From IMG/VR virus record IMGVR_UViG_3300033145_001721, positions 10,973 through 74,972 of that record: a stretch of 64,000 nucleotides of DNA; one strand, written 5' to 3'. A program made the translations under genes and the position numbers. This DNA is from a virus. The notes beneath the pieces are model-generated. The model was not told the DNA's origin. It worked only from the letters and a program-made list of their open reading frames with translations, and searched no databases. Positions 40,989-63,159 of the stretch are shown piece after piece; position 1 is the first letter of the stretch, and every line of letters begins with the position of its first letter.

Positions 40989-41156
40989 AATTATCAGGTT
41001 TAGATTATTGAATTTTTTTCTGCTTTCCTGGGCCAATATAGGTGGTTTTGAACAATTTTTGCAACTTTTCAGATTTTACACTAGTCAACTTGCGATAATC
41101 ATCGTAAACTATAGACAGTAAGAGACAAGTGAATACAGAACAGAAAGGGCAGAAAG

Positions 41157-41336
41157 ATGGTAGTACATACAAATCCAATCACGTTGGAAGCTGAGCAGTA
41201 CTTTGTTCACACAGACGAACGAACCGAGTACTTCGCCAGCTTGGATGCTGCTCAAGCCTTTATCGATATGCATTGTCTCAGCCGCATACACGGTAACAAC
41301 GTTGAGCGTCTGCTGCGAACCAACGCTATCAAATAA
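41157..41336 (+). CDS. Small hypothetical protein (59 aa)
   Basis: Not in the track. MVVHTNPITLEAEQYF...RTNAIK*; shares a 20-bp leader with the next gene. Confidence 0.6.
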   Translation: MVVHTNPITLEAEQYFVHTDERTEYFASLDAAQAFIDMHCLSRIHGNNVERLLRTNAIK

Positions 41337-41365
41337 AGTCAAACCCGAGCAGAAAGGGCAGAAAG

Positions 41366-41674
41366 ATGGAAAACATGATCAGTAAAATTGCCAGTGACAA
41401 CGCCATGCATCTTTTGGACTGTGCATCTGCACTAGAGGAAACCAAACGTGCGTACAAGATCGAATGTGACATCGATTTTGCAGCAAGTGATTTAGCGACC
41501 TCGCTCAAATCACTTCAGACCGAGATCAACGACTTGCAGGAATTCTTGAAGGGAGAACGCAGCCTCACCAACACCGGTATCAATCACTACGCAGACAATG
41601 TGAAAACTGCCGTGACCAAGTTGATGATCCTGATGCCACAGCGTAAACATCACAATCATCTACTCCAGGACTAA
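41366..41674 (+). CDS. Hypothetical coiled-coil protein
   Basis: Same 20-bp leader as the 41157 ORF. Confidence 0.6.
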   Translation: MENMISKIASDNAMHLLDCASALEETKRAYKIECDIDFAASDLATSLKSLQTEINDLQEFLKGERSLTNTGINHYADNVKTAVTKLMILMPQRKHHNHLLQD

Positions 41675-41779
41675 GTTAGAATGCCAGAATGGAAGAAAAG
41701 ACTAATCTTGTGTATAGCAGCGTATGTAGCGTTGCTGTTTTGAAACAATGCATTAACCTCCTTTGGAAAGGCAACAATC

Positions 41780-42352
41780 ATGGCAGCGAAAAAGACAAAC
41801 AAAACCGCACCGAAGGGAACCCACAAAAGCGCCCCGAAGGCACCCAAGACTCTGGTCGTGACTCGCAAGAACGGTGTGAGCCTGATGAAGACATTCGGAT
41901 TCACGGCACCCCACAAGCTCACCAACGAAAAACTGCTCATGCGGCTGCGTAAAATCGGTCAGTACATGGAAGCGTTTGAGGGCAAGCTGTCTGGTGATGA
42001 TCAAAAGCTGGTGGACACCATTATCGCTGCTGGCGATAATATCAGCGTTGACGTCAGCGATCCGGCATTCGCTGAGCCGAAGAACCCGGACGGAAAGAAA
42101 ACGGATACAAAAAAGAAGTCAGCCAAAAAGACGGCCAAGAGGATTGATTGCGTATGTGCCATGCTCAAGAAACTACCAGACAAGGGCGCTTCTATCGAGC
42201 AAGTGGCGAAGCTCGCCAACCAGATGTATGTGAAAGGTGGTGGGGATGACAATGTCAAACAGACCATCCATCACTTGCGTGTGGTGATGCCCACGCTCCA
42301 GAATTTCGACATTATCAAAGTTGAGGATGGCAAACTCTTTCCGGTCAAGTAA
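41780..42352 (+). CDS. Lys-rich putative DNA-binding protein
   Basis: GAAAGG RBS, histone-H1-like Lys/Ala stretches, C-terminal wHTH-like segment, own terminator. Confidence 0.6.
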   Translation: MAAKKTNKTAPKGTHKSAPKAPKTLVVTRKNGVSLMKTFGFTAPHKLTNEKLLMRLRKIGQYMEAFEGKLSGDDQKLVDTIIAAGDNISVDVSDPAFAEPKNPDGKKTDTKKKSAKKTAKRIDCVCAMLKKLPDKGASIEQVAKLANQMYVKGGGDDNVKQTIHHLRVVMPTLQNFDIIKVEDGKLFPVK

Positions 42353-42367
42353 GATTCTTTCTGTTCG

Positions 42368-42408
42368 AAGCCCCGGTCGGTTTTATCACTCGCTGACCGG
42401 GGCTTTTT
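42368..42408 (+). terminator. Rho-independent terminator
   Basis: aagccccggtc ... gaccggggctt followed by a T run. Confidence 0.85.
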
Positions 42409-42636
42409 CATTGGCCTTCCAAATAGCCCCTTCTAAGCTGTAGTCCCTCCGCATCCACACCGATATACCCTCAAACGACATATAGCCCACTACGCGGGTC
42501 GTCTGTGGCCTAAAATCAAAAGGTATGGGCTGTGCCGGACGCCCTTTAGCCAGAATATTCTTTGTATTAGTCTGAATTCTCTTCTTTGCGATAATATCTG
42601 TAGAGTCCAGTTGATATTTGTTAGGAGCCAAATTCA

Positions 42637-43686
42637 ATGAAAGAATACAAAAACCCGTTTTGCATACGCCACGCCCACATGAGTTGCCCACTACCAATAA
42701 CCCTAGAATCCTATTGGGCTTGTGAAGCTGACTGCCATCACTGCCCAGGTCATAAGCTGAATGAAATATGGGGGAAAGAGCAACGAGTCACTGATCCAGT
42801 CAAAGCCATACACAAATTACACAACGCTCTGCGAAACCCCCACCCACGCAGTCCCCTAGCGGTTGCACTGGCCATGAAGAAGACACTCTGGCTGGGAAGA
42901 AAGACTGATCCCTACCAACCGTTGGAGGCTAGAACTAAAACCACTAGAACCATCGTCCGTGGCTTGAACAAATTGAAGTGGTCGTATGTAGTTTGCTCTC
43001 GGTATACTGATCTGATGAGGCGCGATGAAGATCTATTTCGTCAAGGGCAATCAACATTACTGGTGGAAATCACTCCAGGTGGAGAAAGTGATTGGTCTTT
43101 ATTTGAACGTAAGCGAACTACCCCAATAGAATTTCGATTGTCAGCAGCTGCTCGTTGGAATGCTCTTGGTATAAATGTTGGTGTTCGGGGAGAACCTTTT
43201 ATTCCCGGTTATCATACACCTAAACAATTTGAAGATATGCTGCGAAGGCTGAAAAGCTATGGATTGTATAGCTACAATACATACAATCTCCATCTGAACG
43301 AATACAATGCACGCAGGTTGAGCAGTATTGGATTGGACATAGAAAAGATTTGGCATCATAATCAAGATCGGTTGTGGCGACCGATACAACGCCAGCTTTG
43401 TGAAATAGCTGACAAACAAGGTATCATTCTAGGCTGTCCCGATTTCGTCAACGTGCCAAAAGGATGGTGCAGTCGTACCAATACGTGTTGTGGTGTATCT
43501 GTACCTAACCCATTCAAATTCAATACACACTGGTGGCGCAGGCTTTTGCAAAATGGTAAAACCCCTGAACAAACCATCAAGAAAACATGGGAAGGTATAG
43601 GTACAGAGGATGATCAGCAGGAAGGTCGAGCGATAATATTAGGAACGAGTAAAAACAAATATACAATAAAGGATGCTGAGTTATGA
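42637..43686 (+). CDS. Radical SAM protein (SPL/COG1533-like) 1
   Basis: LESYWACEADCHHC (CxxxCxxC), GRKTDPYQPLE, RGEPFIPG, NTCCG. Confidence 0.85.
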   Translation: MKEYKNPFCIRHAHMSCPLPITLESYWACEADCHHCPGHKLNEIWGKEQRVTDPVKAIHKLHNALRNPHPRSPLAVALAMKKTLWLGRKTDPYQPLEARTKTTRTIVRGLNKLKWSYVVCSRYTDLMRRDEDLFRQGQSTLLVEITPGGESDWSLFERKRTTPIEFRLSAAARWNALGINVGVRGEPFIPGYHTPKQFEDMLRRLKSYGLYSYNTYNLHLNEYNARRLSSIGLDIEKIWHHNQDRLWRPIQRQLCEIADKQGIILGCPDFVNVPKGWCSRTNTCCGVSVPNPFKFNTHWWRRLLQNGKTPEQTIKKTWEGIGTEDDQQEGRAIILGTSKNKYTIKDAEL

Positions 43687-44408
43687 TCTATACTATTGGA
43701 AACCAAAAGTTGGATATACCTGAAACCGGATCAAAGCGGAAGATACGAACACCACGTCAGGTTGTACCATGGCGGGACATGGCTGAAACTTGTCGCAATG
43801 TAGATGCAATTTGCAGCATTATTCAAAAACCTCCGTGTACAATTGTGGACGGTATAGCGCGTGCTGGATTTTGGGGTGCTGTGTTTCGTAACAGGTGGCC
43901 CAAATGTAAACTGCTGATGAATGGAGAGAAAGAAGATTGCATACGTGTTCTCAAACAAAATTTCCCTCAAGATAGACACGTTCAAAAAAATATCAAACAT
44001 TGGTGTCCTCCCGTATCTGATTTAGCCATATTAGATTTTGATAAGTTCACACTGAAAAAGATGGACCAATGGGAAAGGGTTTTGTCTACATGGGCGGCAA
44101 GAACGCAGCACTTTATATTTGTGGATGGTGCTTGTTTTGGATTTAAGTTTGGTACATTAAAATCCTACAATATAAGCAATCCCAATGAGTATTACTATTT
44201 GTTGAACGAGCGTTTGAAAAAAATTATAAGCAAAAGAATTGTAGCTGTATCTGCATTTGGTAACGCTGCTACAATTCTTATGCAAGACCGACACCCCCGC
44301 AAAATCAAATTTGTACCCCCAACAAATTTATCTTTATCACGGGGAAATAAAGTCTACAAATTCAACCCCAATCCTAAAAGGTCTAGGCTTGGATTAGTTA
44401 ACAAATGA
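43683..44408 (+). CDS. Class I SAM-methyltransferase-like fold protein
   Basis: TIVDGIARAGFWG (degenerate motif I), C...LKQNF, DLAILDF. Confidence 0.45.
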   Translation: MIYTIGNQKLDIPETGSKRKIRTPRQVVPWRDMAETCRNVDAICSIIQKPPCTIVDGIARAGFWGAVFRNRWPKCKLLMNGEKEDCIRVLKQNFPQDRHVQKNIKHWCPPVSDLAILDFDKFTLKKMDQWERVLSTWAARTQHFIFVDGACFGFKFGTLKSYNISNPNEYYYLLNERLKKIISKRIVAVSAFGNAATILMQDRHPRKIKFVPPTNLSLSRGNKVYKFNPNPKRSRLGLVNK

Positions 44409-45400
44409 TAAATTGGACTGATGTATTGTCGGATGTTCAAGAGTTCAAATGCAAGAAAAAGACTCTTGGACAGCTAAATTGCTTAGCTGTTGATTCTCTA
44501 TACGGATCAATGTGGGGACTCAATCATCGATACATGACTTTGCAGCAAGCTCTGACCAAAGATTTTTCAAGTATAACTGCTTACGCAATTCGTCGCATTC
44601 ATCGCTTACTGGAAATTGGTCCTGTTTCATTTCGTCCTCGCAAACTTCCAAAAGTTCGTCGTATAGGATTCGGCACATATGGATGGAAGTACGACTCTGA
44701 ACTCATAGCTTTAGCGGTCAAGCATAACCTTCTGATTGATACTGCCGAAGGTTATGGCTATGGCAAAGTGGAAACTGAATTAGGCAAAGCTTTGGTACAT
44801 CACAACGCTGAAGTCACTACCAAGGTATCACGATCTCACATGTCCCCAAAAGCTTTGCCATCAGCTGCACTCCGCAGCCGTAACAAACTTGGACTTATTC
44901 CTCACTACCAACTCCACTTTCCTCATAGCCTATATTCCGATGAGCAAATTGGGCAGTCGTTAGTACAAGTCCGTGAATCCAAAACGATCCAATCTATTGG
45001 GCTTGGCAATTGCAGCGTAGATATGATTGAATCTATGCAAGCTTTTCTGTCAGATTATTCTGGTGATGTTATTCGTAGTGTTCAAATGCGATACAATTTG
45101 GCCGACCGAAGAATTGAAAATGCATTGATGCCTTATTGTCGAAAAAGAGGCATTGCGATAATAGCTTACAGTCCGTTGGGTCAAAAGTTTTCTACTTTGC
45201 AAACACCCACATTGAGTCATATAGCGCGGCGCTATCATTGTACGACGGCACAGATTGCTTTGGCTTGGGTGTTGCGAATGCCTGGGATTATACCTATCCC
45301 CCGTACTAATAATGTAGATCATTTGAAAGACAATATAAAGGCACTTAGTATTCATTTGACCAAAAACGAAATACACAAACTCAACAACGCTTATTTATGA
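44405..45400 (+). CDS. Aldo/keto reductase with an N-terminal extension
   Basis: IGFGTY, IDTAEGYG...ETELG, TTKV, YQLHFP, SIGLGN, AYSPLG, AQIALAW, PIPRT...HLKDN. Confidence 0.9.
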   Translation: MINWTDVLSDVQEFKCKKKTLGQLNCLAVDSLYGSMWGLNHRYMTLQQALTKDFSSITAYAIRRIHRLLEIGPVSFRPRKLPKVRRIGFGTYGWKYDSELIALAVKHNLLIDTAEGYGYGKVETELGKALVHHNAEVTTKVSRSHMSPKALPSAALRSRNKLGLIPHYQLHFPHSLYSDEQIGQSLVQVRESKTIQSIGLGNCSVDMIESMQAFLSDYSGDVIRSVQMRYNLADRRIENALMPYCRKRGIAIIAYSPLGQKFSTLQTPTLSHIARRYHCTTAQIALAWVLRMPGIIPIPRTNNVDHLKDNIKALSIHLTKNEIHKLNNAYL

Positions 45401-45407
45401 GGATGTT

Positions 45408-46808
45408 ATGGACTACTATGAATTGCGATCCGTTTTAAGTCGCATTATCCCACGTGAAACTTCATTGGTACCAACACACCATATGGTTAACGCCATAAAA
45501 GAAAAAGGGCGCAAACAAAACTACTCTGAATATAAATTGAACCAAGATAAATGGGTGAAACAAGAACGACTATTGAATGATCAAGAGATTTCTTCATTTA
45601 TTGAAATCAGCTGCCGTGCAGCTGCGTGTCCAATGCCACTGAATTTGGATATCTGGGATGGTATTCTTTGTCCTTATGGATGTAAATACTGTTTCGCCAA
45701 TCTATTTCGCGCATCTCTTTACACCGCCTTTTTTGATAATAGCAAAACACTAGGGCTGCGACATTGTAACCCTACAAAATACAAAAAGGAAATGGACAAA
45801 CTTTTCAAGCATCGGGGAGAAAATCCACATGACGTTTCCAATTCTTTAGCCAAAGCCATCGCCATGGGATTGCCTATTCGCTTCGGAATTCGCTTTGAGG
45901 ATTTTATAAAAGCAGAAGAACGACATGGCGTCAGCTTAGAGTTAATGAATTATTTAGCTGATCACAAATATCCCCTAATGATCAACACTAAATCAGATTT
46001 GGTATGTCATGATGAATATGTAGATGCCATGATTCGAACAAAATCAGCTGTTCACGTAACACTCATATCCAGTAACAATAAAATCTTGAAAGCGTTAGAG
46101 CCCAATGCACCTTCCTATGAACGCCGATTGGAAGCTATGCGAATTCTTTCTGCTGCAGGTATCAGAGTTGTTGCCCGCATTGAACCCTATCTGGTATATG
46201 TTACAGATCAAAAGGAGGATGTTGAAAAATACATCAAAGACGTTTGGGATGCAGGTGTACGAAACATCACCTTTGATAACTATTCGTACAGTGCGAAAAA
46301 CCCAGGTATCCGTCAAGCGTTTCGGAATGAAGGTATTGATTTTGATCGGTTGTTTTTGTTGGGGTGTGATTCACAACCACTCAGCAGCTTATTGTTGGGT
46401 TCGTTTATGCAGATGTTTCGTGATGCAGGTTTCAGCTGTTCGACTTTTGACATGGGTAATGTTCCGGATAACGATCAGAATATATGTTGCGAAGTCGGTG
46501 ATTGGTTTGGTTCCGGATTCAATTATGGTTGTGCTGTTATGGCTGCCAGATTCATTCAAAGTCGTAAAGGGCGTGAAACAACATGGAAGAATTTTGAAAG
46601 TTGGGTGGATGATCACGGAGGTTTTCTCCGTGATACATTGAAGCATGAAGTTCATCAACTGTGGAATTGCGAAGGGCTAGATGCATACAGTCATAGTTGG
46701 GCTAGAGGATTGGAAGCTGTGGGCAGCGATAGTTCAGGTTTAGTGTGGGTTTGGCATGATACGGACTTCCGATTGGATCTCTACGATAATATAGCTAGAG
46801 GTTTGTAG
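45408..46808 (+). CDS. Radical SAM protein (SPL/COG1533-like) 2
   Basis: CPYGCKYC, INTKS, LEPNAPSYERRL, RVVARIEP, NICCE. Confidence 0.88.
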   Translation: MDYYELRSVLSRIIPRETSLVPTHHMVNAIKEKGRKQNYSEYKLNQDKWVKQERLLNDQEISSFIEISCRAAACPMPLNLDIWDGILCPYGCKYCFANLFRASLYTAFFDNSKTLGLRHCNPTKYKKEMDKLFKHRGENPHDVSNSLAKAIAMGLPIRFGIRFEDFIKAEERHGVSLELMNYLADHKYPLMINTKSDLVCHDEYVDAMIRTKSAVHVTLISSNNKILKALEPNAPSYERRLEAMRILSAAGIRVVARIEPYLVYVTDQKEDVEKYIKDVWDAGVRNITFDNYSYSAKNPGIRQAFRNEGIDFDRLFLLGCDSQPLSSLLLGSFMQMFRDAGFSCSTFDMGNVPDNDQNICCEVGDWFGSGFNYGCAVMAARFIQSRKGRETTWKNFESWVDDHGGFLRDTLKHEVHQLWNCEGLDAYSHSWARGLEAVGSDSSGLVWVWHDTDFRLDLYDNIARGL

Positions 46809-46843
46809 ATTTCAAAGGTTGAACAAAAACGAAAGGTCTGATC

Positions 46844-47269
46844 ATGGGTAAGGGACATACAGCACAAAACAGCAATTTAAGATTTACAAAGGCTGAAATG
46901 TGTTTACTTCTCAGTATATTTATACGGGGATGCCCGCCTCGTGTAATAAGATATATAGCAGAGATATTAGGTCGTTCGATTGAATCTATAGAGAGAGTAA
47001 AGCGTCGGTTATTATACGATGGTAGTGTTGAAGACTATGGGCACCCCCGTAGTTATTTGCAACCACCCAATTCCAACCCATGGACGACTTTAACAGGTTT
47101 CGCAAAGGAATACATTGAGGTACAATATTTTAATCCTCATATCAAATGTTCCGTTTCAAAAATCAGCCAAAAAACAGGAATTCCAGAAGCTATTATTCAA
47201 GCAGAAGTTGACAAAGAGATCATTTCAAGAAACCGAAAAATCAAGAGGCACAAAAAGTTACTATCATAA
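46844..47269 (+). CDS. Hypothetical protein, HTH-like
   Basis: IAEILGRSIESIER and KISQKTGIPE; GAAAGG RBS. Confidence 0.5.
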   Translation: MGKGHTAQNSNLRFTKAEMCLLLSIFIRGCPPRVIRYIAEILGRSIESIERVKRRLLYDGSVEDYGHPRSYLQPPNSNPWTTLTGFAKEYIEVQYFNPHIKCSVSKISQKTGIPEAIIQAEVDKEIISRNRKIKRHKKLLS

Positions 47270-47296
47270 CCATCATCTACTAAAAGGGACAACCAT

Positions 47297-48034
47297 ATGA
47301 GCAAAATAAATGATCGCATCGAAACTATATTTTCACATGCTGTTGCACTCCAGCAGAGTGGACGCTTACGCAATACAATTTATTGTCGAGGATCATTTGT
47401 CTACATCTTCAACCAAGATCATACAGTGTTGATGCGATTCACTATTCCCTCTGCAAGTGTCAAATTCAAACACCCTATAAGCTTCTTTGCCAACGACTAT
47501 GACAGTCGTCGTTTCACGGAGAAAGATGGGTGCATTTGTTTTATCCAAACAAGTAGTGACAACACCCACGAATATGTGCGTGTAAAATCTTGCCGCGTCC
47601 CGAATTTCAAAACCACAGACATCAAAAAGCTATTCGATAAGTATGAATCAAGATTTAAGAAGGTCAATGGCGTTGAAATATCTGAAGCTTTTTGTCAGTT
47701 TCTCGACAGTGCTTTGAGCCATGTCGAATTCAGTAGTAAAGACGGAAAACTTATTGGCGTCCAGCGTAACATTTACACGGGTGCGGCAACAACAATCACA
47801 CAAAATAAGAAGCAACAAAAACTTTTGACATCGGAATCAAAATTACGAAACTTCGAGCCTATCGGATTGCGAACCAATGACTTCACAGCAATATTTACAT
47901 TTGCAAAGTCTGTACAATTTTGGTTCGGCCGCAAGGGCACCGTTCGTTTTTGCAGCAAAGATCCTCGTATGCCCTTTGTGGGTTTCATTAGCCAATGTAT
48001 GTATGATGAATTAGGAGTAGACTATGGGAGGTAA
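47297..48034 (+). CDS. Possible sliding-clamp-like protein (two-domain size)
   Basis: 245 aa; helix-strand pattern IFSHAVAL...IYC....YIFNQDHTVLMRF and C-terminal RTNDF..IF...SVQFWF reminiscent of PCNA/gp45; fold not confirmed. Confidence 0.35.
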   Translation: MSKINDRIETIFSHAVALQQSGRLRNTIYCRGSFVYIFNQDHTVLMRFTIPSASVKFKHPISFFANDYDSRRFTEKDGCICFIQTSSDNTHEYVRVKSCRVPNFKTTDIKKLFDKYESRFKKVNGVEISEAFCQFLDSALSHVEFSSKDGKLIGVQRNIYTGAATTITQNKKQQKLLTSESKLRNFEPIGLRTNDFTAIFTFAKSVQFWFGRKGTVRFCSKDPRMPFVGFISQCMYDELGVDYGR

Positions 48035-48185
48035 ATCACGAAAGACCGGGGGCATCAGTCTCAAACTGATCCAGAAAATAGCAAACCGAACCAATACAGG
48101 TAAAAGCTGTGGAACCAAAAAAAATCAATCAAAACAGCGTCTTGGTTTATCTGAAAATTCTACAGATGACAAAGGTTCATCCTAA
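48024..48185 (+). CDS. Small basic peptide (53 aa)
   Basis: Not in the track. AGGAG RBS at 48013; MGGKSRKTGGISLKLIQKIANRTNTGKSCGTKKNQSKQRLGLSENSTDDKGSS*. Confidence 0.55.
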   Translation: MGGKSRKTGGISLKLIQKIANRTNTGKSCGTKKNQSKQRLGLSENSTDDKGSS

Positions 48186-48885
48186 TTTTTGGACAAGCAA
48201 AGACTATTTACATTACAGCGAAACTCCTTGGATTGAAAAGGATGGATTGTCTGGGTGGTGGGATGAAACAGAATGGCTGATTCCACCCTTAGATAATTTT
48301 GGATGTTTTGTAACGGCAGGTGTAAATGTATACGCTGGATGGCCTCAAATGCATAACGAGGATACTGATAAGTTTGTAGACCACCAATTCGTTTACAATC
48401 CTCAGGATTTCCTAAAAATGGAAGGTCATTCATGGCAAACCTTCCGTAAAAACGTACGGAAGTTTCCTAGGCGAAACTCAGGTGATTTACAATACAGACG
48501 GTTCGACAACGAAGAGGGTTTGGAAAAATTGCTTGTGCTTTGGGCTCAAGGCCGAACAATCTTTGATCCCGATACTATGGTAAGAACTATAATGCGTAGT
48601 CCCAACCGAAAAGGATTGTTCTTGAATGACTGTTTGATTGGTGTCAACGTATGGGATGAAAACTGGATGTATGTGAACTACCGTTACTGCATTGATGATA
48701 GTTCAGGATTTCTCAATGAGTATTTGCGATGGAGGTTTTATACAGATGAAGAAATTTTGAACAAAACCAAATTAGTCAACGATGGAGGTTCACTAGATTC
48801 TGATACACTCTATCGTTTCAAAATGAAACTCAACCCTGTAACCGTATGGAAAGTCTATAGTATTAGGAGTATTAACAATGGCTAA
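48109..48885 (+). CDS. DUF2156 / aaPGS-C-like GNAT-fold transferase
   Basis: FVYNPQDFLKMEG.SW..FRKNVRKF and VNDGGSLD...LYRFKMKLNP resemble the DUF2156 Y.Y...L..L.G...R....F and N..ED.G..GLR..K..Y.P motifs; start may be 48166. Confidence 0.6.
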   Translation: MEPKKINQNSVLVYLKILQMTKVHPNFWTSKDYLHYSETPWIEKDGLSGWWDETEWLIPPLDNFGCFVTAGVNVYAGWPQMHNEDTDKFVDHQFVYNPQDFLKMEGHSWQTFRKNVRKFPRRNSGDLQYRRFDNEEGLEKLLVLWAQGRTIFDPDTMVRTIMRSPNRKGLFLNDCLIGVNVWDENWMYVNYRYCIDDSSGFLNEYLRWRFYTDEEILNKTKLVNDGGSLDSDTLYRFKMKLNPVTVWKVYSIRSINNG

Positions 48886-48931
48886 AATCAAACGTGAACT
48901 ATTATTGAAAGAACTGAATTCAGTCGTTCCC
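48864..48931 (+). repeat. 68-bp direct repeat, copy A (orphan RBS + first 18 codons of the beta clamp)
   Basis: Matches 49994-50061 with 2 mismatches. Confidence 0.95.
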
Positions 48932-49001
48932 ATAAAATTCCATGCGATAATATATTATAATTGCACACGTGTTTAGACTACGAATTATAGAAAGAGCTAA
49001 T

Positions 49002-49985
49002 ATGGGCAAGCCCAAAGTGCTTAAGTATAACCTCGAAAACATACCAACTCGCAAAGACGTCTTCGGCAATGAACGAAAAGACTTATCGGTCAAAGGCCGA
49101 ATAGGATTTGTACCAATATCTATTTGGCGGTGTGATTGGGGATTGGTTAAAAAACTGAAATGCATAATTGGCGATTTTGGTCAGGTCCGATCATTAGATC
49201 AAACACAGTCTTCGGGAATTTGCGGGCATAGACATAAATCTCAAAATGCACGCACGTACGAAAATACATACTGTCACAGTATGCAAAACAAATCTACGGG
49301 TGGTTGGCACCGAATCGGTTCCCGATATGGAGATCGCAGCACAGACGCTGATGATAACGTTTCCATATTCAATCCGCATTTAGCATTGATGATTCTTTCG
49401 GCGTACTGTCCAAAAGGGGCATACATTTACGACCCATTTGCTGGGGGTGGCACGCGCGGATTCATCGCAACCGCAATGGGATTCAAATATTATGGGCGGG
49501 AGATACGTCAAATCGAAGTAAATCGGATAAAACGAGTCCAAAAAAAATTGAAACTCAAATTTCATATCTTCTGTGCAGATGCGAAAAGCGATCCACCAAA
49601 AAATGAACGGTTTGACTTTAGTTACACATGCCCCCCATATTGGAATATGGAAGTCTATTCCAATTTACCGGATGACATTTCTAATGCCAATACATACCAA
49701 GAGTTTCTCTCTGGTATGAAAAAAGCGTTGATCAGTACATACAAAGCCCTTAAACCCGGCACGTTATCAATTTGGGTTGTTGGAAATTTTAGGCAAGGAC
49801 ACAGATTAATTCATTTTAATGGTGATTTGATACACAAAGCAGAAGAAGTCGGTTTCCAACTTCATGATGAAATTATTTTCTGGGGAGGATCTGGACGAGC
49901 AGGCCTCCGCTCGGGGAACTTCGTAAAAAACAGAAAGTCAGTTAGAATTCACGAATATGTAATAATACTGAAAAAGCCGAATTAA
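49002..49985 (+). CDS. DNA amino-methyltransferase (m4C/m6A type)
   Basis: SIFNP, YDPFAGGGTRG, TCPPYWNMEVYS; probable start MGKPK at 49002. Confidence 0.85.
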   Translation: MGKPKVLKYNLENIPTRKDVFGNERKDLSVKGRIGFVPISIWRCDWGLVKKLKCIIGDFGQVRSLDQTQSSGICGHRHKSQNARTYENTYCHSMQNKSTGGWHRIGSRYGDRSTDADDNVSIFNPHLALMILSAYCPKGAYIYDPFAGGGTRGFIATAMGFKYYGREIRQIEVNRIKRVQKKLKLKFHIFCADAKSDPPKNERFDFSYTCPPYWNMEVYSNLPDDISNANTYQEFLSGMKKALISTYKALKPGTLSIWVVGNFRQGHRLIHFNGDLIHKAEEVGFQLHDEIIFWGGSGRAGLRSGNFVKNRKSVRIHEYVIILKKPN

Positions 49986-49993
49986 CCAACATG

Positions 49994-50061
49994 TAGGAGT
50001 ATTAACAATGGTTAAAATCAAACGTGAACAATTATTGAAAGAACTGAATTCAGTCGTTCCC
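49994..50061 (+). repeat. 68-bp direct repeat, copy B (functional beta clamp start)
   Basis: taggagtattaacaatggttaaaatc...cagtcgttccc. Confidence 0.95.
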
Positions 50062-51033
50062 GGGCTATCAGAGCGCGAGATTATTGAACAATCATCATGC
50101 TTTGTATTCAAGGACGGAAACGTTTACACATTCAATGACGAAATAGCTTGTTGGGCTAAATCCTCTTTGGACATCACTGGAGCGGTATCCGCTAAAAAGC
50201 TGATAAGTCTACTGCAAAGTATGTCTGAAGAAAGGCTGGACGTCAACGCATCCAAAAACGGCAAGCTGGTTATCAAGGGGATACACAAGCGAGCTACATA
50301 TGCTCTTGAATCTCGTATCGCTCTGCCCATTGATTCTATCAAGAAACCCAAAACGTGGAAATCACTACCATCTGATTTTCTCGAAGGGCTGTCCCTAGTA
50401 GCTGATTGTGCAGGCCGAGATGAATCAAACTTTGTTTTGACTTGTATCCATATCGCACCAGACAAACTTGAAGCAAGCGACAACGATCGTGTAGCTAAGT
50501 TCATCACAAAAACCCGCGTGCGTAAATCCATGCTTATCCGCAAAGACACCATCAAACATCTGGTCGCTGCCGGAGTGACTTATTTTGGAGAAACATCTGA
50601 TTGGGTTCACTTTCGTACCGGCAAAGGCCCAATCATTTGTTGCCGACGATACACCGAAAGCTTCCCTAACACAGATAAGGCTTTTCAAATCAGCGGGAAG
50701 AAAATGAGCCTGCCGGAAGGGTTGGAAAAAGCTTCTCGTCGTGCTGCTATTTTCAGTGCTGACAATCCAGAAGACAGTGACATATTTGTCACACTCACTA
50801 CCAATAGGGCCCTGATTAGAGGCACAGGCACAGGTGGGGAGTTTCAGGAAATCAAAAAGATAGCGTATACAGGAAAACCCTTAACCTTTTTGATTTCTCC
50901 CACACAACTGATTGCATTAACCCGCAAGCATAACAGCTGTATTGTAGCACAAGAAAAGCTAAAATGCAAAAGCGGACAATTTGAATTCGTAGCTGCGTTG
51001 GGTGTGACTCCGCAAGAAGATGAGAATGTGTAA
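50008..51033 (+). CDS. dnaN: DNA polymerase III beta-type sliding clamp
   Basis: 341 aa; KIKREQLLKELNSV, DESNFVLTCIH...EASD..R, FP...LEKASRRAAIF. Confidence 0.75.
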   Translation: MVKIKREQLLKELNSVVPGLSEREIIEQSSCFVFKDGNVYTFNDEIACWAKSSLDITGAVSAKKLISLLQSMSEERLDVNASKNGKLVIKGIHKRATYALESRIALPIDSIKKPKTWKSLPSDFLEGLSLVADCAGRDESNFVLTCIHIAPDKLEASDNDRVAKFITKTRVRKSMLIRKDTIKHLVAAGVTYFGETSDWVHFRTGKGPIICCRRYTESFPNTDKAFQISGKKMSLPEGLEKASRRAAIFSADNPEDSDIFVTLTTNRALIRGTGTGGEFQEIKKIAYTGKPLTFLISPTQLIALTRKHNSCIVAQEKLKCKSGQFEFVAALGVTPQEDENV

Positions 51034-51122
51034 TGCAATAAAACCCATACGAATCATTCATCAGTGCTTATCTCAAAAGATTGAGGACCAAATCAAGCTA
51101 TGAAAAAGTTGGAAGAAATGTG

Positions 51123-52358
51123 ATGAGAAAAGGATTCTTTGTCCCAAGCGACATATCCACATCCAAATCTATGAGCACAACCCCTCGTTGTGGTTTGTGC
51201 AATTTACATCGTACATGCATACATCCCAAGATGCCGCCTACGGGTAAAGGCCACAAACGATTATTGTTTGTGGCTGAAGCTCCAGGTGGTTTGGAAGATG
51301 AAAAGAACACACAACTCATCGGAAAATCTGGGCAGTACTTGCGATCAATGTTGAAACGTTATGGAATAGACTTAGACAAAGATGCCCGAAAAACGAATGC
51401 TGTAATTTGTTGTCCACCAAAAAACGAAAAGCCAACAAGCGTTCAAATTGCGGCCTGCCGTCCAAACGTGCTGAAAGAAATTGTACGTTTCCAACCTACC
51501 TGTATCGTATTGTTAGGTGCCACAGCAGTTGAATCTGTCATACCTATTTTCTGGAAAGACAAAGTCGATGCATTCTCACGATGGACCGGATGGCAGATAC
51601 CAATACAAAGCAAAAACGTTTGGGTGTGCCCTACTTATCATCCAGCGTACATACTACGCAAACCGGGAAAACAATACACACTGCTTTTCAAACAACACAT
51701 CAAGGCTGCTGTCAAATTGCAAAAACCACCATGGGTAAAGGTGCCAGATTTCAGTACTGGAATTGAAATTATCACATCCCCATCACAAGCGGGTCGATAC
51801 CTACATCAACTATATCGATCTAAGCCCACACACACCACCTGGGACTTGGAAACGTCCAGCCTGAAGCCTGATACCCCTGGATCGGAGATCGTTTGTTGTA
51901 GCGTGTGTACGGGGCCAGAAACAGTAGTGTTTCCCTGGGCTGGCGACGCAGTAGACGAAATGTTAGAGATTCTCCAAAATCCACACATCCGAAAGATAGC
52001 AGCCAACAATAAGTTTGAGCACCGTTGGATTCTACACAAACACAAAGTGCACGTAAATGGTTGGTATTATGATGTAGTGCTTGGGGCACACGCTTTGGAT
52101 AATAGACCAAAAGTCACAGGTGTAAAATTCCAATCATTTGTGCGACTAGGGCAACAAAGTTACAATGATCATATCGAACCATACTTACGTGCAGCCTCGT
52201 ACAAACTCAACAGAATCCTTCAACTGCCTATTACTGAAGTAATGTTGTACTGTGGAATAGATTCAAAAGTAGAAAACGAATTGGCACTAATACAAATACC
52301 CGAACTGATAAAACAAGGAAAGGTTCACCGACGTGCAATGCAAACCTATAACGCATGA
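51123..52358 (+). CDS. Family-4 UDG-like domain fused to a 3'-5' exonuclease (N-terminal part of an SPO1-type polymerase)
   Basis: CGLCNL, FVAEAPG..ED, CCPP, LLGATA, PTYHPAY, then WDLETS (ExoI), NNKFE (ExoII), YCGIDS (ExoIII). Confidence 0.85.
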   Translation: MRKGFFVPSDISTSKSMSTTPRCGLCNLHRTCIHPKMPPTGKGHKRLLFVAEAPGGLEDEKNTQLIGKSGQYLRSMLKRYGIDLDKDARKTNAVICCPPKNEKPTSVQIAACRPNVLKEIVRFQPTCIVLLGATAVESVIPIFWKDKVDAFSRWTGWQIPIQSKNVWVCPTYHPAYILRKPGKQYTLLFKQHIKAAVKLQKPPWVKVPDFSTGIEIITSPSQAGRYLHQLYRSKPTHTTWDLETSSLKPDTPGSEIVCCSVCTGPETVVFPWAGDAVDEMLEILQNPHIRKIAANNKFEHRWILHKHKVHVNGWYYDVVLGAHALDNRPKVTGVKFQSFVRLGQQSYNDHIEPYLRAASYKLNRILQLPITEVMLYCGIDSKVENELALIQIPELIKQGKVHRRAMQTYNA

Positions 52359-53727
52359 CGGATACCATTTGTTTCAACAAGGATCGATCACACTGGCTGA
52401 AATGGAGTGTAACGGATTTTGTATTGATACCGCATATATAGCACGTGCCCAAAAACATTTAAGCGTGAAAATTCAAACGCTTACAGAACGCATGAAAAAG
52501 GATAAGGTCTATCGTGTTTGGAAACGAAAGTATGGCCTTAAAATGAACTTTGGTAGTAGGGAACAATTAGGAGATATTGTTTTCAACGAACTTAAATTGG
52601 CGGAAGGCACGAAGACTAAAACAGGGAGGTACAAAGCCGACAAAGCAGCACTTGAAAATATCGACGTGCCCTTTTTAGAATGGTATACTAAACTCGAACA
52701 GTTTAAGAAAGCTAAAGGTACATACCTTAACGGAATTCAACGACATACAGATTCAGAAGGTTTCATACATCCATTTTTTGGTTTGGATACAGTCCGAACA
52801 TTTCGGGGCTCGTGTGCTGATCCGAATCTACAAAATATACCAGTCCGCGATCCCATTATCAAAAAACTCATACGTCGTGGATTCATCCCACGCGAACCGA
52901 ATAGACATATTGTGGAACATGATTTCAGCGGTGTAGAAGTAAAAACGGCTGCATGCTATAATCACGACCCAACACTTATCCAATACATTAAAGACAAAAA
53001 GTCTGACATGCACCGAGATATGTGCATGCAAATCTATTGTTTGACCCTGAAAGAATATACAGATGCCTTGCGCCACTGTGCAAAAAACATGTTTGTGTTT
53101 CCCGAATTTTACGGCGATTGGTATCTTAGTTGTGCTCAATCGTTATGGTATGCTGTGCAACGATTACATCTGAAAACAAAAACAGGTGAGGATGTGTTTA
53201 AGCATCTTCGTCGTCACGGCATTACAAAGCTAGGCCAATGTATTCCAGGGGAAACCCCTTTACCCCACAGCTTTGAAGGCCATATCAAAAAGGTTGAAAA
53301 GGACTTTTGGGAAAACAGATTTCGTGTGTATACAGAATGGAAATGGGATTGGTGGGAAGACTATTTAGATCGCGGATACTTTGATACCCTCACAGGCTTT
53401 CGTATTTCGGGTGCTATGGATCGCAAGAAGGTCATAAATTATCCAATCCAAGGATCTGCATTTCATTGCCTTTTGTGGTGCCTAATTCGCATCAATAAAC
53501 TGCTGCGAAAATATAAGATGAAGACAAAACTGATTGGGCAGATTCACGATAGTGTAATTGCTGATGTCTTGCACCGTGAGTTGAAAGACTACATTGAAAT
53601 AGCCCACCAGGTCATGACAATTGATTTACGCAAACATTGGAATTGGATTATTGTTCCAATAGGTGTCGATGCAGAAGTAGCACCAATGGGCCGAAGTTGG
53701 TATGAAAAGAAACGATATACATTATGA
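52333..53727 (+). CDS. polA: DNA polymerase family A, polymerase domain
   Basis: DPNLQNIP, DFSGVE (motif A), RHCAKNMFVFPEFYG (motif B), NYPIQGSA, QIHDS (motif C). Confidence 0.92.
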   Translation: MQCKPITHDGYHLFQQGSITLAEMECNGFCIDTAYIARAQKHLSVKIQTLTERMKKDKVYRVWKRKYGLKMNFGSREQLGDIVFNELKLAEGTKTKTGRYKADKAALENIDVPFLEWYTKLEQFKKAKGTYLNGIQRHTDSEGFIHPFFGLDTVRTFRGSCADPNLQNIPVRDPIIKKLIRRGFIPREPNRHIVEHDFSGVEVKTAACYNHDPTLIQYIKDKKSDMHRDMCMQIYCLTLKEYTDALRHCAKNMFVFPEFYGDWYLSCAQSLWYAVQRLHLKTKTGEDVFKHLRRHGITKLGQCIPGETPLPHSFEGHIKKVEKDFWENRFRVYTEWKWDWWEDYLDRGYFDTLTGFRISGAMDRKKVINYPIQGSAFHCLLWCLIRINKLLRKYKMKTKLIGQIHDSVIADVLHRELKDYIEIAHQVMTIDLRKHWNWIIVPIGVDAEVAPMGRSWYEKKRYTL

Positions 53728-62599: not shown

Positions 62600-63159
62600 A
62601 GCAAATTGATATCGTGGTTCGTAACCGTTACGATAAATACACACAAGGTGTGGCTCAATATACACGCGCAAAGAAACAACACAAACAAGCTCGGACCAAT
62701 AGGATTGTTGCGAAAAAAGGCCAAGTTATTTTGCAACAAGCATCAGAACAAATCCAAAGACAAGCACACGAACAAATTGCAAAAACTATCACACAGTGTC
62801 TACAATTCGTGTTTGGTGATTCCTATTCCTTCTGCATAAAATTTGAACGCAAGAGGAACAGAACCCAAGCCTGTTTACAGTTGCTCAAGGATGGCAACAT
62901 AATCGCTGATCCGGCAAATGAGGATTCGGGTGGTGTGTTGTCTGTGGCCAGTTTTGCTCTCCGATTAAGTTGTCTATTTTTGCATAAACCCACACTGCAA
63001 AAAGTGCTTATTCTGGATGAGCCTTTCTCCCACGTAAGCAAGAAATATCTATCGCGTGTACGCGAATTGTTAGAAAGATTGTCCCAAGAATTTGGATGTC
63101 AAATTATCATGGTCACACATATATCAGAACTACAAATTGGAAAGGTGGTAGAGCTATGA
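62581..63159 (+). CDS. SbcC/Rad50-like ATPase, C-terminal half
   Basis: DSGG signature, LILDEPF Walker B, MVTH. Confidence 0.85.
   Translation: MEEISVKQIDIVVRNRYDKYTQGVAQYTRAKKQHKQARTNRIVAKKGQVILQQASEQIQRQAHEQIAKTITQCLQFVFGDSYSFCIKFERKRNRTQACLQLLKDGNIIADPANEDSGGVLSVASFALRLSCLFLHKPTLQKVLILDEPFSHVSKKYLSRVRELLERLSQEFGCQIIMVTHISELQIGKVVEL

Follow-up and report, generated by a model that had tools for sequence, protein, structure and literature searches.

A gene module in the replication region of an uncultured phage, probably for DNA hypermodification by an undescribed entry route

Results

Organization of the locus

The window analysed in our study, a stretch of 64,000 nucleotides, comes from an uncultured 75-kb phage and carries, inside the replication genes, a module with two radical-SAM proteins (RS1 and RS2), a methyltransferase-like (MTase-like) protein, an aldo-keto reductase (AKR), a clamp-like protein, a short peptide and a tandem-GNAT protein (Table 1). 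All ORFs from RS1 through the replicative clamp (42637-51033) are co-oriented; RS1 and the MTase-like gene share 4 bp (43683-43686), as do the MTase-like and AKR genes (44405-44408), and according to the ORF coordinates 7 bp separate the AKR from RS2.

Table 1. Features of the locus, numbered from the first nucleotide of the window.
Feature	Position	Strand	Description
Terminator-like boundary	42370..42407	+	GC-rich hairpin then T-run, read directly; 5' of block
Promoter-like motif GCGATAATAT	42588..42597	+	40 nt upstream of RS1
RS1, radical-SAM	42637..43686	+	349 aa; CX3CX2C motif C-E-A-D-C-H-H-C; near-core
GCGATAATAT-type motif copy	43630		Before MTase-like/AKR cassette
MTase-like ORF	43683..44408	+	241 aa; class-I SAM-methyltransferase-like; accessory
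AKR	44405..45400	+	331 aa; aldo-keto reductase, PF00248 E 4.8e-36; accessory
RS2, radical-SAM	45408..46808	+	466 aa; cluster motif C-P-Y-G-C-K-Y-C; core
GCGATAATAT-type motif copy	46783		1 mismatch; before 141-aa insert
141-aa ORF	46844-47269	+	Window-specific insert; outside conserved module
PCNA-like protein (predicted)	47297..48034	+	245 aa; two-domain clamp fold; core; second clamp besides the one at 50008
Conserved peptide	48024..48185	+	53 aa; core; overlaps clamp-like and transferase genes
Tandem-GNAT protein (predicted), DUF2156/aaPGS-C/FemX type	48109..48885	+	258 aa; aminoacyl-tRNA-dependent transferase fold; core
N6/N4 DNA methylase cassette	48864..50061 (gene 48969-49985)	+	Repeat-flanked; PF01555; between module and replicative clamp
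GCGATAATAT-type motif copy	48944		Before methylase cassette
Replicative clamp	50008-51033	+	341-aa processivity factor, phrog_947; adjoins PolA and clamp loader

A consensus terminator scan gave no match at the upstream boundary because the hairpin loop exceeds the limit of the scan. The motif GCGATAATAT is over-represented, with 17 matches at one mismatch or fewer against 4.0 +/- 2.0 in shuffles, and its exact copies lie on the coding strand, 25-60 nt upstream of starts. Two inserts do not belong to the conserved module. The 141-aa ORF has homologues in none of 80 related loci, and a Pfam search assigned it to no family. The methylase cassette lies between two direct copies of a 68-nt repeat (48864-48931 and 49994-50061, 66 of 68 positions identical), has a methylase homologue in only 10 of the 80 loci and is a separate moron. 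An earlier note on this DNA had placed all of these features (ORFs with ATGA overlaps, 7-bp gap, terminator, motif, repeat-flanked cassette) at the positions found here; its proposal that the block would abut the clamp genes once the cassette is removed describes the arrangement seen in relatives, where the 258-aa transferase gene directly adjoins the clamp with no gene between them.

Predicted proteins of the module

RS2 scores 30.5 bits against PF04055 (cut-off 29.5), and both radical-SAM proteins give weak NCBIfam matches to the PA0069, Rv2578c and 'mobile pair B' families (E 1e-9 to 5e-16), although for every named radical-SAM family their scores lie 5 to 10 times under the curated cut-off. 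Their profiles matched no SPL chain among the PDB sequences, and Pfam and NCBIfam searches detected no SPASM or RiPP-recognition features in either. The two are paralogous (hhalign 98.7%), and profile comparison relates RS1 to gp53 of phage M6 (hhalign 96.6%, E 4.7e-10) and RS2 to the same protein at 85.8%, so that RS1 is, as judged from these profiles, a remote homologue of the gp53 glycinyl-thymine isomerase. RS2 is the most conserved gene of the module; we found 548 homologues, mostly about 60% identical and many from contigs of 60-80 kb. JGI annotates RS2 homologues as 'DNA repair photolyase'.

The MTase-like profile matched SAM methyltransferases among PDB sequences at E 0.003-0.008, an Atlas structure search gave TM 0.62-0.64 to tRNA m6A37 methyltransferases, and a relative matched the D12 Dam-class family PF02086 at E 0.0024; in the alignment its glycine-rich loop reads A-R-A-G and not the usual G-x-G, a non-canonical SAM loop. 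The AKR has a conserved N-terminal extension of about 85 aa and a tetrad (D112, Y117, K140, H171) that is invariant in nine homologues and aligns to 4pmj.

Neither a Pfam nor a PHROG family, nor any detectable sequence similarity to clamps, was found for the 245-aa protein. Its AF2 model (pLDDT 91.6) nevertheless matches PCNA in Foldseek at E 4e-10 and viral clamps in BFVD, and a VIA comparison places it in the PCNA fold with Z 16.1 and rmsd 4.1 over 217 aligned residues. The adjacent peptide has the invariant N-terminus M-G-G-K-S-R-K-x-G, followed by a linker rich in Lys, Gly and Ser; close to the C-terminus is a short hydrophobic-acidic patch, a C-terminal hydrophobic patch being present in 40 of 41. 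Its motif was found in 77 of 86 sources, and in each case the gene lies between those for the clamp-like protein and the transferase. The AF2 model of the 258-aa protein (pLDDT 95.5) gave VIA Z scores of 21.1 to 2hqy, 15-16 to L-PGS/MprF, 12 to Sbb17/Sba18 and 11-12 to FemX, the fold being closest to those of aminoacyl-tRNA users, and PF09924 weakly matched 30 of 54 members of its family (best E 1.3e-6). No phage tRNA linked to the module was found.

The earlier note had named each of these products. Its two radical SAMs are borne out by the CX3CX2C motifs, PF04055 for RS2 and the weak PA0069/Rv2578c-type matches, its AKR by PF00248 and an intact catalytic tetrad, its MTase-like fold by profile and structure searches of class-I type, and its small peptide by conservation across sources, while the models support a predicted PCNA fold for its clamp-like protein and a predicted tandem GNAT of DUF2156/aaPGS type for its DUF2156-like transferase.

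Synteny and modular inheritance in related phages

Our comparisons drew on about 96 related uncultured phage contigs, from which counts were taken over 80 loci, 75 relatives, 86 sources or 66 loci retrieved through the transferase. Across the contigs, four genes (RS2, clamp-like, peptide, transferase) make up a block of fixed composition that has DnaB on one side and the replicative clamp and PolA on the other, with RS1 and a variable cassette immediately upstream, in the order SNF2 helicase, primase, DnaB, RS1, [cassette], RS2, clamp-like protein, peptide, transferase, clamp, UDG/exo-PolA, clamp loader and SSB. RecA-like, FEN and SbcCD-like genes and a UDG-fused PolA are also neighbours in the replication region. 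The set of 80 loci was retrieved via RS2, which is thus present in all 80 by construction; RS1 occurs in 69 of them, the clamp-like gene in 77 and the transferase in 71. Retrieval through the transferase returned 66 loci, and each of RS2, the clamp-like gene and the peptide is present in 65 of these. Co-occurrence, which the earlier note had put forward as a check, is therefore strong in both search directions; since the loci all come from a single phage lineage, it is weak evidence for a function shared by the core genes.

The cassettes are combinatorial, being built from PLP, FAD, AKR, amidoligase and MTase-like genes, and their type follows the tree of RS1 (9 changes) and not those of RS2, the clamp or the transferase (13-15 changes on the other trees). 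The MTase-like and AKR pair of our phage occurs in 8 of the 75 relatives, almost never alongside the PLP enzyme, and the AKR is always accompanied by an MTase-like or FAD gene. A recognisable cassette is missing from 20 of the 75, so the engine by itself must already carry out a complete function. The RS1-RS2 junction also gathers DNA methylases, a dCMP deaminase and homing endonucleases. Alone among the relatives, the sister phage L111 lacks RS1, RS2, the clamp-like gene and the peptide but keeps the transferase, beside which, in the same slot, lies a TET-associated glycosyltransferase of a known DNA-modification family. Contrary to the single pathway of equal parts that had been proposed, the module has a constant engine of RS2, clamp-like protein, peptide and transferase, a near-constant RS1 that is inherited with the cassette, and an accessory MTase-like protein and AKR.

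Links to thymidine hypermodification

The M6 5-NedU pathway (Lee et al. 2021, PMC8989533) comprises gp51 (aGPT-Pplase2), gp52 (a PLP decarboxylase), gp53 (a radical-SAM isomerase) and gp54 (a 5-hmdU DNA kinase), while the PaMx11 5-AcNmdU pathway comprises gp46 (transferase), gp47 (flavin-dependent lyase), gp48 (acetyltransferase) and gp49 (kinase). The PLP enzyme gp52 decarboxylates C-alpha-glycinylthymidine in DNA (PMC8989533), gp53 is a glycinyl-thymine isomerase, and the substrates of gp52, gp53 and gp47 are glycine-thymidine conjugates in DNA. The commonest cassette gene in our relatives is a PLP enzyme 35% identical to gp52 (E 4e-54); gp52 homologues occur in 48 loci, with identities of up to 47%, and always adjoin RS1, mirroring the adjacency of gp52 and gp53 in M6. 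The FAD cassette gene of some relatives shares 27% identity over 85% of the protein with the PaMx11 FAD oxidoreductase gp47 (E 8e-24) and is found in cultured phages almost only in the PaMx11 type (17 of 20 records are Pseudomonas phages). These homologues of gp52 and gp47, which tie the relatives to DNA chemistry, are absent from the window.

In the complete genome and four relatives, PF00303 matched no ThyA-type hydroxymethylase, and single-sequence queries, which could miss very remote analogues, returned no homologue of gp51 or gp54; a search for TET/JBP was run without a positive control. The earlier note had likewise seen no hallmark enzyme of known pathways, and for the ThyA-type hydroxymethylase, the 5-hmdU kinase and the aGPT-Pplase this agrees with our searches.

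Discussion

Interpretation of the module

We favour, with moderate confidence, the interpretation that the block serves to hypermodify DNA bases after replication, with an engine that stays constant and a finishing cassette that can be exchanged. This reading is drawn from the homology of RS1 and of the relatives' cassette enzymes to enzymes proven on modified thymidine in DNA, from the clamp fold, from the aminoacyl-tRNA-transferase fold and from the missing entry enzymes; the conserved synteny, the two-way co-occurrence, the cassettes that follow the RS1 tree and the glycosyltransferase in the L111 slot also speak for it. Points against it are the single lineage of the loci, in which the clamp-like protein could be a replisome part, the low family scores of RS1 and RS2 and their missing match to SPL, the lack of gp52 and gp47 homologues in the window, the non-canonical SAM loop of the MTase-like protein, the lack of a module-linked phage tRNA and the relatives that have no recognisable cassette. 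On this reading the module is probably a hypermodification pathway whose entry route is undescribed, in which the bases of the phage DNA are most likely decorated without any enzyme that starts the known pathways. The central idea of the earlier note thus stands as hypermodification beside the polymerase genes, on circumstantial evidence from several independent lines, but not as a pathway of equal parts nor as one lacking known relatives; the combination of genes is indeed unrecognised, and we found no published description of the module in the literature, yet the system is partly homologous to the M6 and PaMx11 thymidine pathways.

Beyond the observed folds, homologies, synteny, modular inheritance and absence of detectable known entry enzymes, we infer DNA as the substrate, together with the target base, a tRNA donor, the order of the steps and the product. 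RS2 would activate a base at some position within double-stranded DNA, and the 258-aa tandem GNAT would deliver an amino acid, probably taken from an aminoacyl-tRNA in the manner of Mu Mom. The enzymes may be held on DNA by the 245-aa PCNA-like clamp, with the 53-aa peptide as a clamp-bound adaptor or as an acceptor or carrier for the transferase. RS1 might then rearrange the appended group, which the cassette would sculpt, mostly through a gp52-type PLP decarboxylase and in some relatives through a gp47-type flavin lyase with an AKR. In our phage the MTase-fold protein and the AKR would be the finishing cassette, and the end product may carry a reduced (hydroxyl) function, and perhaps also a methylated one, as opposed to the primary amine of the PLP type. 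The order proposed earlier, a radical step, then a hydroxyl made by the AKR, then decoration by the transferase and MTase, fits poorly because the transferase is core and the AKR optional.

Alternatively, the N-terminus of the peptide could be the true substrate: the GNAT would aminoacylate its N-terminal glycine or a lysine from aminoacyl-tRNA, the radical SAMs and cassette would tailor that residue, and the product might be the peptide in modified form or a small molecule carried on it, scaffold-peptide or RiPP-like, for delivery to DNA by the clamp or for another use. The nine invariant N-terminal positions, against about 33% identity in the remainder, agree with such a role, as do the overlap of the gene with both neighbours, its presence in most sources, the peptide-amine tandem GNATs among the structural matches (FemX, L/F-transferase-like enzymes, ATE1 and NMT) and the joint loss of the peptide with RS1, RS2 and the clamp-like gene in L111. 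However, we consider this explanation unlikely: the radical SAMs are of the COG1533/gp53 type without detected SPASM or RiPP-recognition features, the cassette enzymes have homologues with demonstrated activity on amino acids borne by DNA, both the clamp fold and the place within the replisome operon point to DNA, and L111 keeps the transferase without the peptide.

It is quite unlikely that the genes are unrelated neighbours, that is, independent replication accessories or morons (nucleotide-pool enzymes, a second replisome clamp, a metabolic AKR) whose linkage is only apparent because they are core or hot-spot genes of one lineage. The other genes gathered at the RS1-RS2 junction and the promoter-like motif that each inserted cassette in the window has of its own would suit this explanation, and the 245-aa protein could be a replisome part, as the phyletic pattern cannot separate its gene from the replisome. 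Against it, the gp52-like gene always lies beside RS1, the AKR never occurs without an MTase-like or FAD gene, the overlaps of the peptide gene with both flanking genes suggest translational coupling, and the four-gene block is intact in 65 of the 66 independently retrieved loci.

DNA repair, in which RS1 and RS2 would act without light as lyases on lesions of the spore-photoproduct type or others arising in tightly packed virion DNA, with the extra clamp as a tether and the basic peptide as a DNA coat, would accord with the JGI name, the weak similarity to SplB-type families and the neighbouring genes (RecA-like, FEN, SbcCD-like, UDG-fused PolA), but is very unlikely, given that the SPL family model TIGR04070 scores 12.7 bits against a cut-off of 400, that the core aminoacyl-transferase fold and the combinatorial cassettes co-inherited with RS1 are left unexplained, and that M6 gp53, the closest characterised relative, is a modification enzyme.

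Comparison with known systems

Weak profile matches place RS1 and RS2 in the same superfamily branch as the SplB-like COG1533 families (PA0069, Rv2578c, radical SAM mobile pair B), from which they differ by a conserved C-terminal region of their own that contains a CC motif. In some RS2-family alleles an intein is found at the cluster motif, as in the Rv2578c intein variant. The predicted 245-aa protein resembles PCNA and T4 gp45-type clamps in its two-domain fold and size, the likeness extending over 217 of its 245 residues, but is additional to the phrog_947 factor beside PolA and the clamp loader.

The tandem-GNAT fold is common to the whole predicted 258-aa protein and the C-terminal domain of DUF2156/aaPGS enzymes (MprF, A-PGS, L-PGS; 2hqy); in contrast to these, the phage protein is soluble and stand-alone, has no membrane flippase domain and scores 14.8 bits against the PF09924 cut-off of 27.5. 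A lipid is an unlikely acceptor. A precedent for the proposed donor chemistry, a GNAT using a charged tRNA in post-replication DNA modification, is Mu Mom, which moves glycine from Gly-tRNA to adenine N6 in dsDNA (PMC13219725). Mom is a single-domain GNAT that acts alone, whereas the phage protein is a predicted tandem GNAT of the DUF2156/aaPGS/FemX branch within a multi-enzyme set, and no sequence or fold match to Mom was among the matches listed for it.

The PaMx11 pathway resembles our relatives in its gp47, whose homologue occupies the same slot and is paired with the AKR family of the window. It differs in gp46- and gp49-type genes, of which none was seen here, and in the AKR, present here and not described for PaMx11 in the text available of PMC8989533 (zero occurrences of 'aldo'). 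The M6 5-NedU system is like the module in that RS1 and RS2 appear to be remote homologues of gp53, that the gp52 homologue of relatives lies beside RS1, and that both systems sit among replication genes. M6 has gp51 and gp54, of which no homologues were found with the module, and our window has the MTase-like protein and AKR in place of gp52. Whereas M6 has one radical SAM, the module combines two paralogues with an extra clamp, an invariant peptide and a transferase of predicted tRNA type.

Organization of the block and its genomic surroundings

Our study leads us to regard the block of eight co-oriented ORFs listed in the table below as a system of post-replicative DNA hypermodification, a reading that we hold to be probable though far from secure. 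The block comprises two radical-SAM proteins (RS1 and RS2), a methyltransferase-like (MTase-like) ORF, an aldo-keto reductase (AKR), a clamp-like gene, a peptide, a transferase and one further ORF, and it lies in a record that is complete (74,972 bp, with direct terminal repeats; IMG/VR virus record), of which the window covers bases 10973-74972. The ORF coordinates, with their 4-bp overlaps and 7-bp gap, match those of the earlier note exactly, and the terminator-like hairpin with its T-run and the copy of GCGATAATAT that it had placed 5' of the block are both present. The methylase cassette is repeat-flanked, as stated there; the repeat is 68 nt long and 66/68 identical.

Features of the window (window positions)
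Feature	Position	Strand
190-aa ORF	41780-42352	
Terminator-like hairpin and T-run	42370-42407	
RS1	42637-43686	+ (co-oriented block)
241-aa MTase-like ORF	43683-44408	+
AKR	44405-45400	+
RS2	45408-46808	+
141-aa ORF	46844-47269	+
245-aa clamp-like ORF	47297-48034	+
53-aa peptide ORF	48024-48185	+
258-aa transferase ORF	48109-48885	+
Split family-A DNA polymerase	51081-53727	
ThyX	63096-63917	
GCGATAATAT, example sites	24155, 42033, 42588, 43630, 48944, 54685, 59860	

The block sits within the replication operon, where its 5' neighbours are an SNF2 helicase, a primase, ParB and a DnaB-like helicase. On its 3' side are genes for a 341-aa processivity factor, a UDG-like/3'-5' exonuclease protein, a PolA polymerase domain, a clamp loader and SSB, together with a RecA-like protein, FEN, a PD-(D/E)XK nuclease, SbcCD-like proteins and ThyX. 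Two genes share the family-A DNA polymerase between them, the first carrying a UDG-superfamily domain with the 3'-5' exonuclease and the second the polymerase domain, and this split is conserved throughout the lineage. An Rfam scan of 41000-51500 returned no family.

At one mismatch or fewer, GCGATAATAT has 17 sites across window positions 21557-60395, where shuffled sequences give an expectation of 4.0 +/- 2.0; its copies are strand-matched to genes and lie 25-60 nt before their starts. It is a genuine genome-wide signal and probably a phage promoter. Copies precede RS1, the pair formed by the 241-aa ORF and the AKR, the 141-aa insert and the methylase, and each inserted cassette (MTase-like/AKR, 141-aa ORF, methylase) has its own. 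The 141-aa ORF that separates RS2 from the clamp-like gene has a homologue in 0 of 80 related loci and no Pfam family; its marginal PHROG match is to a D5-like transcriptional regulator (E 9e-4). A 190-aa ORF directly 5' of RS1, with no function assigned, recurs in 10 relatives, always just before RS1 or the MTase-like/AKR pair, and may be part of the AKR-type cassette.

The clamp-like protein, the peptide and the transferase

The protein described earlier as clamp-like is predicted to adopt a two-domain clamp fold (pLDDT 91.6). Its top match is PCNA (Foldseek E 4e-10; for yeast PCNA, VIA Z 16.1 and rmsd 4.1 over 217 residues), and the next matches are viral clamps. No fused form of it was found among longer proteins, which is weak evidence.

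The 53-aa peptide is a real gene, as had been proposed: M-G-G-K-S-R-K was found as a motif in 77 of 86 sources, and the gene is always located between the clamp-like and transferase genes, overlapping both. The remainder of the peptide is a Lys/Gly/Ser-rich linker, with a short hydrophobic-acidic patch at its end in 40 of 41 sequences; we infer this patch to be a possible clamp-binding motif. Since nine N-terminal positions are invariant and the gene overlaps both neighbours, a peptide-centred pathway, in which this N-terminus would be the acceptor of the transferase, has something in its favour; we consider it improbable.

The transferase had been called DUF2156-like. The predicted structure (pLDDT 95.5) is a tandem GNAT of the aaPGS type, which supports the assignment at the level of the fold; family membership is not supported by the Pfam model, since the window protein scores 14.8 bits (E 0.016) against PF09924, below the cut-off of 27.5 bits, and 30 of 54 members of the transferase family give weak matches (best E 1.3e-6). 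Structural similarity is highest to the DUF2156 protein 2hqy (Z 21.1 over 244 residues), followed by L-PGS/MprF (aaPGS) at Z 15-16, clearly above generic tandem GNATs and NMT (about 9-11); the aminoacyl-tRNA-dependent peptide synthases Sbb17/Sba18 reach Z 12 and FemX 11-12. To judge from this modelled fold, the transferase would use aminoacyl-tRNA as its donor. Among 60 relatives, tRNA genes turn up only here and there and differ in identity, one being a tRNA-Gly, and none was found within the window; a dedicated donor tRNA is therefore unsupported.

Distribution and co-occurrence of the module

Our searches identified 548 homologues of RS2 at E <= 0.001, mostly about 60% identical and many of them on contigs of 60-80 kb. 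In viral contigs, a scan with the single RS2 sequence found nothing; an alignment-based scan was successful. The 80 viral loci found via RS2 share one gene order: helicase, primase, DnaB, RS1, a variable segment, RS2, clamp-like gene, peptide, transferase, clamp, PolA and loader. The co-occurrence that the earlier note wanted checked thus holds, and it holds in reverse as well: with the transferase as query, RS2, the clamp-like gene and the peptide are each present in 65 of 66 assessable loci. RS1 is entirely missing from a few relatives.

DNA and protein searches of cultured phages with the whole block, RS2 and the clamp-like protein returned nothing (E <= 1e-5 or 0.01); at E <= 1, RS2 gave weak partial matches only, to fecal contigs and to radical-SAM genes of Acidianus two-tailed virus. 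The collection of species genomes yielded five contigs only, whose MAGs belong to five different phyla; we take these for phage contigs binned in error, and they therefore offer no clue to the host. No description of this gene combination was found in our literature searches. Being absent from cultured phages and from nearly all cellular genomes, the module is a core feature of an uncultured lineage; co-occurrence by itself is therefore no proof of shared function, and the alternative that the genes are merely unrelated neighbours, which this point favours, is in our judgement unlikely.

Relationships of the two radical-SAM proteins

The motif CX3CX2C is present in both RS1 and RS2 (invariant in 27 and 51 homologues), and each has a conserved Cys upstream and a CC motif downstream of it. 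RS2 passes the PF04055 cut-off (30.5 bits versus 29.5); RS1 has no Pfam match, yet it matches RS2 at 98.7% (hhalign). Judged by sequence comparison, the two are paralogues, with an identity of 21%.

It had been suggested that both are SPL-like. In the spore photoproduct lyase model TIGR04070, whose cut-off is 400 bits, RS2 reaches 12.7 bits (E 0.046) and RS1 is not matched at all; no SPL chains were found with the sequence or profile of either protein, and no solved structures were reached by sequence. The homologues of RS2 are named nothing beyond "DNA repair photolyase", but with RS2 so far under the SPL cut-off, plain DNA repair is very unlikely. The only NCBIfam matches of RS1 and RS2 are SplB-like families (PA0069, Rv2578c and mobile pair B), with best scores of 37-59 bits against curated cut-offs of 360-430 bits; membership was rejected, and these are distant relatives only. 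In comparison with gp53 of phage M6, a radical-SAM isomerase, RS1 gives a probability of 96.6% (21% identity over 175 columns, a remote homology) and RS2 one of 85.8%.

Some RS2 alleles carry an intein (HINT plus a DUF559-type endonuclease) within CX3CX2C, whose third cysteine is the +1 residue. Examples are L051:8662-11131 and L078:8355-11164, in two related phage loci, and protein P0043, the L078 intein region having a frame break; the arrangement parallels the NCBIfam variant "intein-containing Rv2578c". HINT/DUF559 ORFs were considered as cassette genes and rejected, since they are parts of the intein inside RS2.

A variable cassette beside RS1

The genes between or beside RS1 and RS2 differ among relatives. 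Our study classified 75 distinct loci having both RS genes, as shown in the following table. The PLP enzyme is present in 41 of these relatives and absent from the window. The AKR always occurs with the MTase-like or the FAD gene, and only once with the PLP enzyme.

Cassette types among 75 distinct loci having both RS genes
Cassette	Loci
PLP enzyme only	35/75
PLP + MTase-like	4/75
PLP + amidoligase	1/75
PLP + AKR + FAD oxidoreductase	1/75
AKR + MTase-like (window's type)	8/75
AKR + FAD oxidoreductase	3/75
MTase-like only	3/75
No recognised cassette	20/75

The PLP enzyme is 35% identical to the PLP decarboxylase gp52 of M6 (E 4e-54; up to 47% in other loci) and its gene always adjoins RS1, as gp52 adjoins gp53 in M6. 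The FAD enzyme matches almost only PaMx11-type phages among those in culture, including the FAD oxidoreductase of PaMx11 (E 8e-24), and 17 of the 20 matching records are Pseudomonas phages. It has been reported that gp53 isomerises N-alpha- to C-alpha-glycinylthymidine in DNA, that its product is decarboxylated by gp52, and that the same glycine-thymidine conjugate is the substrate of gp47 of PaMx11, a flavin-dependent lyase (Lee et al., PMC8989533). Given the homology to gp52, gp53 and gp47, the finishing enzymes are therefore kin to enzymes that act on DNA bases bearing an amino acid.

Modularity was assessed on 48 shared loci with FastTree trees. The RS1 tree shows 9 changes of cassette type, those of RS2 and the clamp-like protein 13 each and that of the transferase 15, compared with about 16.4 for shuffled labels (minimum 12-13); when AKR loci are set against the rest, there are 2 changes on the RS1 tree and 5-6 on the others. 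Because changes are fewest on the RS1 tree, RS1 and the cassette behave as an exchangeable finishing unit, a pattern to which their physical adjacency contributes, and RS2, the clamp-like gene, the peptide and the transferase behave as a constant engine.

The junction between RS1 and RS2 is also a hot spot for DNA methyltransferases (N6/N4, C5, MT-A70), dCMP deaminase and GIY-YIG homing endonucleases (L037/L039 between RS1 and RS2; L050; L077). In a sister phage, L111 (IMGVR_UViG_3300007775_000011; L111:3927-7783), the same frame from DnaB to clamp/PolA retains the transferase and lacks RS1, RS2, the clamp-like gene and the peptide. The slot holds small ORFs and, adjoining the transferase, a TET-associated glycosyltransferase (PF20691, E 5.4e-40), a known DNA-modification family; neither a ThyA-like nor a TET gene was detected in this 87%-complete record.

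The AKR and the MTase-like protein

The AKR proved to be a clear member of PF00248 (E 4.8e-36; 124.8 bits, cut-off 24), as the earlier note had it. Its Asp-Tyr-Lys-His tetrad (D112, Y117, K140, H171) is invariant in nine homologues and aligns with 4pmj, and it has a conserved N-terminal extension of about 85 aa. Among the AKRs of known structure, keto-acid and keto-amide reductases are some of the nearest to it; searches of cultured phages gave generic matches on short unannotated records, without informative context. For the 241-aa protein, an Atlas model (TM 0.62-0.64 to tRNA m6A37 MTases) and profile matches to SAM MTases (E 0.003-0.008) agree with the proposed MTase-like fold and point to class I. 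The family descends from Dam-like enzymes, to judge by a PF02086 match in one relative. It is important to note that the glycine-rich SAM-binding loop (G-x-G-x-G or A-G-x-G) is absent from the window's protein: methyltransferase activity is doubtful because the loop reads A-R-A-G, as it does in AKR-linked relatives, whereas other family members keep A-G-x-G.

Search for entry enzymes

All characterised amino-acid-derived hypermodifications of thymidine begin at 5-hydroxymethyl-dU, a base that is synthesised as a nucleotide before a DNA kinase activates it (PMC8989533). In agreement with the claim that no hallmark dUMP hydroxymethylase is encoded, ThyA-type PF00303 was not found in any of five genomes (this complete one and 4 relatives; three of the five complete), the control being positive in 10 of 14 genomes. 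In the same five, single-sequence searches without a positive control gave no match at E <= 0.1 to M6 gp51 (aGPT-Pplase) or gp54 (5-hmdU DNA kinase). A TET/JBP search gave no matches, but its control was silent too, which makes it uninformative. ThyX (PF02511, E 4e-53) is encoded, so the phage can make ordinary dTMP; it is present in one of two other complete relatives and is thus not universal in the lineage.

Proposed mechanism and its significance

According to the hypermodification reading, the engine would need no pre-activated nucleotide to attach a group derived from an amino acid to a base. Radical activation would fall to RS2, the tandem GNAT would bring in the amino acid, which plausibly comes from aminoacyl-tRNA (cf. 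Mom), and the clamp-like protein would confer processivity; the adduct would then be rearranged by RS1 and completed by the cassette. The pairing of FAD oxidase with AKR suggests amine oxidation followed by carbonyl reduction, and in the AKR types an amine would be converted to a carbonyl and then to an alcohol. In the window, the MTase-fold protein with its altered SAM loop would take the oxidase's place.

A wider reading, which we offer only tentatively, is that RS2 functionalises an unactivated position of a normal base (e.g., the thymine methyl) directly in duplex DNA, that the DUF2156-type transferase adds an amino acid taken from aminoacyl-tRNA, with or without the invariant 53-aa peptide as carrier, and that the system, with its own PCNA-like clamp and the AKR/MTase-like cassette, yields an undescribed base with a hydroxy-acid or hydroxyalkyl side chain. 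Such a route would dispense with the modified nucleotide precursor, the DNA kinase and the pyrophosphorylase.

On the hypermodification reading, a widespread lineage would keep the finishing enzymes of the thymidine pathways and have every starting enzyme replaced; in their stead it would have a further radical-SAM enzyme, a transferase of the tRNA type, a clamp of its own and a very small invariant peptide. The metagenome mining published so far used the DNA kinase as its anchor (PMC8989533) and would therefore have missed the module. If true, DNA modification would have a new entry chemistry, Mom would be joined by a second, unrelated case that depends on tRNA, and there would be an instance of a clamp that serves a modification machine; the natural cassette swaps (PLP, FAD+AKR, MTase-like+AKR, none) would give a series of related new bases, relevant to restriction and CRISPR evasion and to enzymatic tools for DNA labelling.

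Comparison with known systems

The module resembles the M6 pathway in the remote gp53-type homology of RS1 and RS2 and in the gp52-type PLP gene that relatives carry beside RS1; it differs in that the window has no gp52-type gene and no ThyA-type, gp51 or gp54 match was obtained. The likeness to PaMx11 lies in the FAD cassette enzyme of relatives, which matches the FAD oxidoreductase of that phage. Finally, Mom, which transfers glycine onto adenine from aminoacyl-tRNA (PMC13219725), provides a precedent for the proposed tRNA-borne amino-acid donor.
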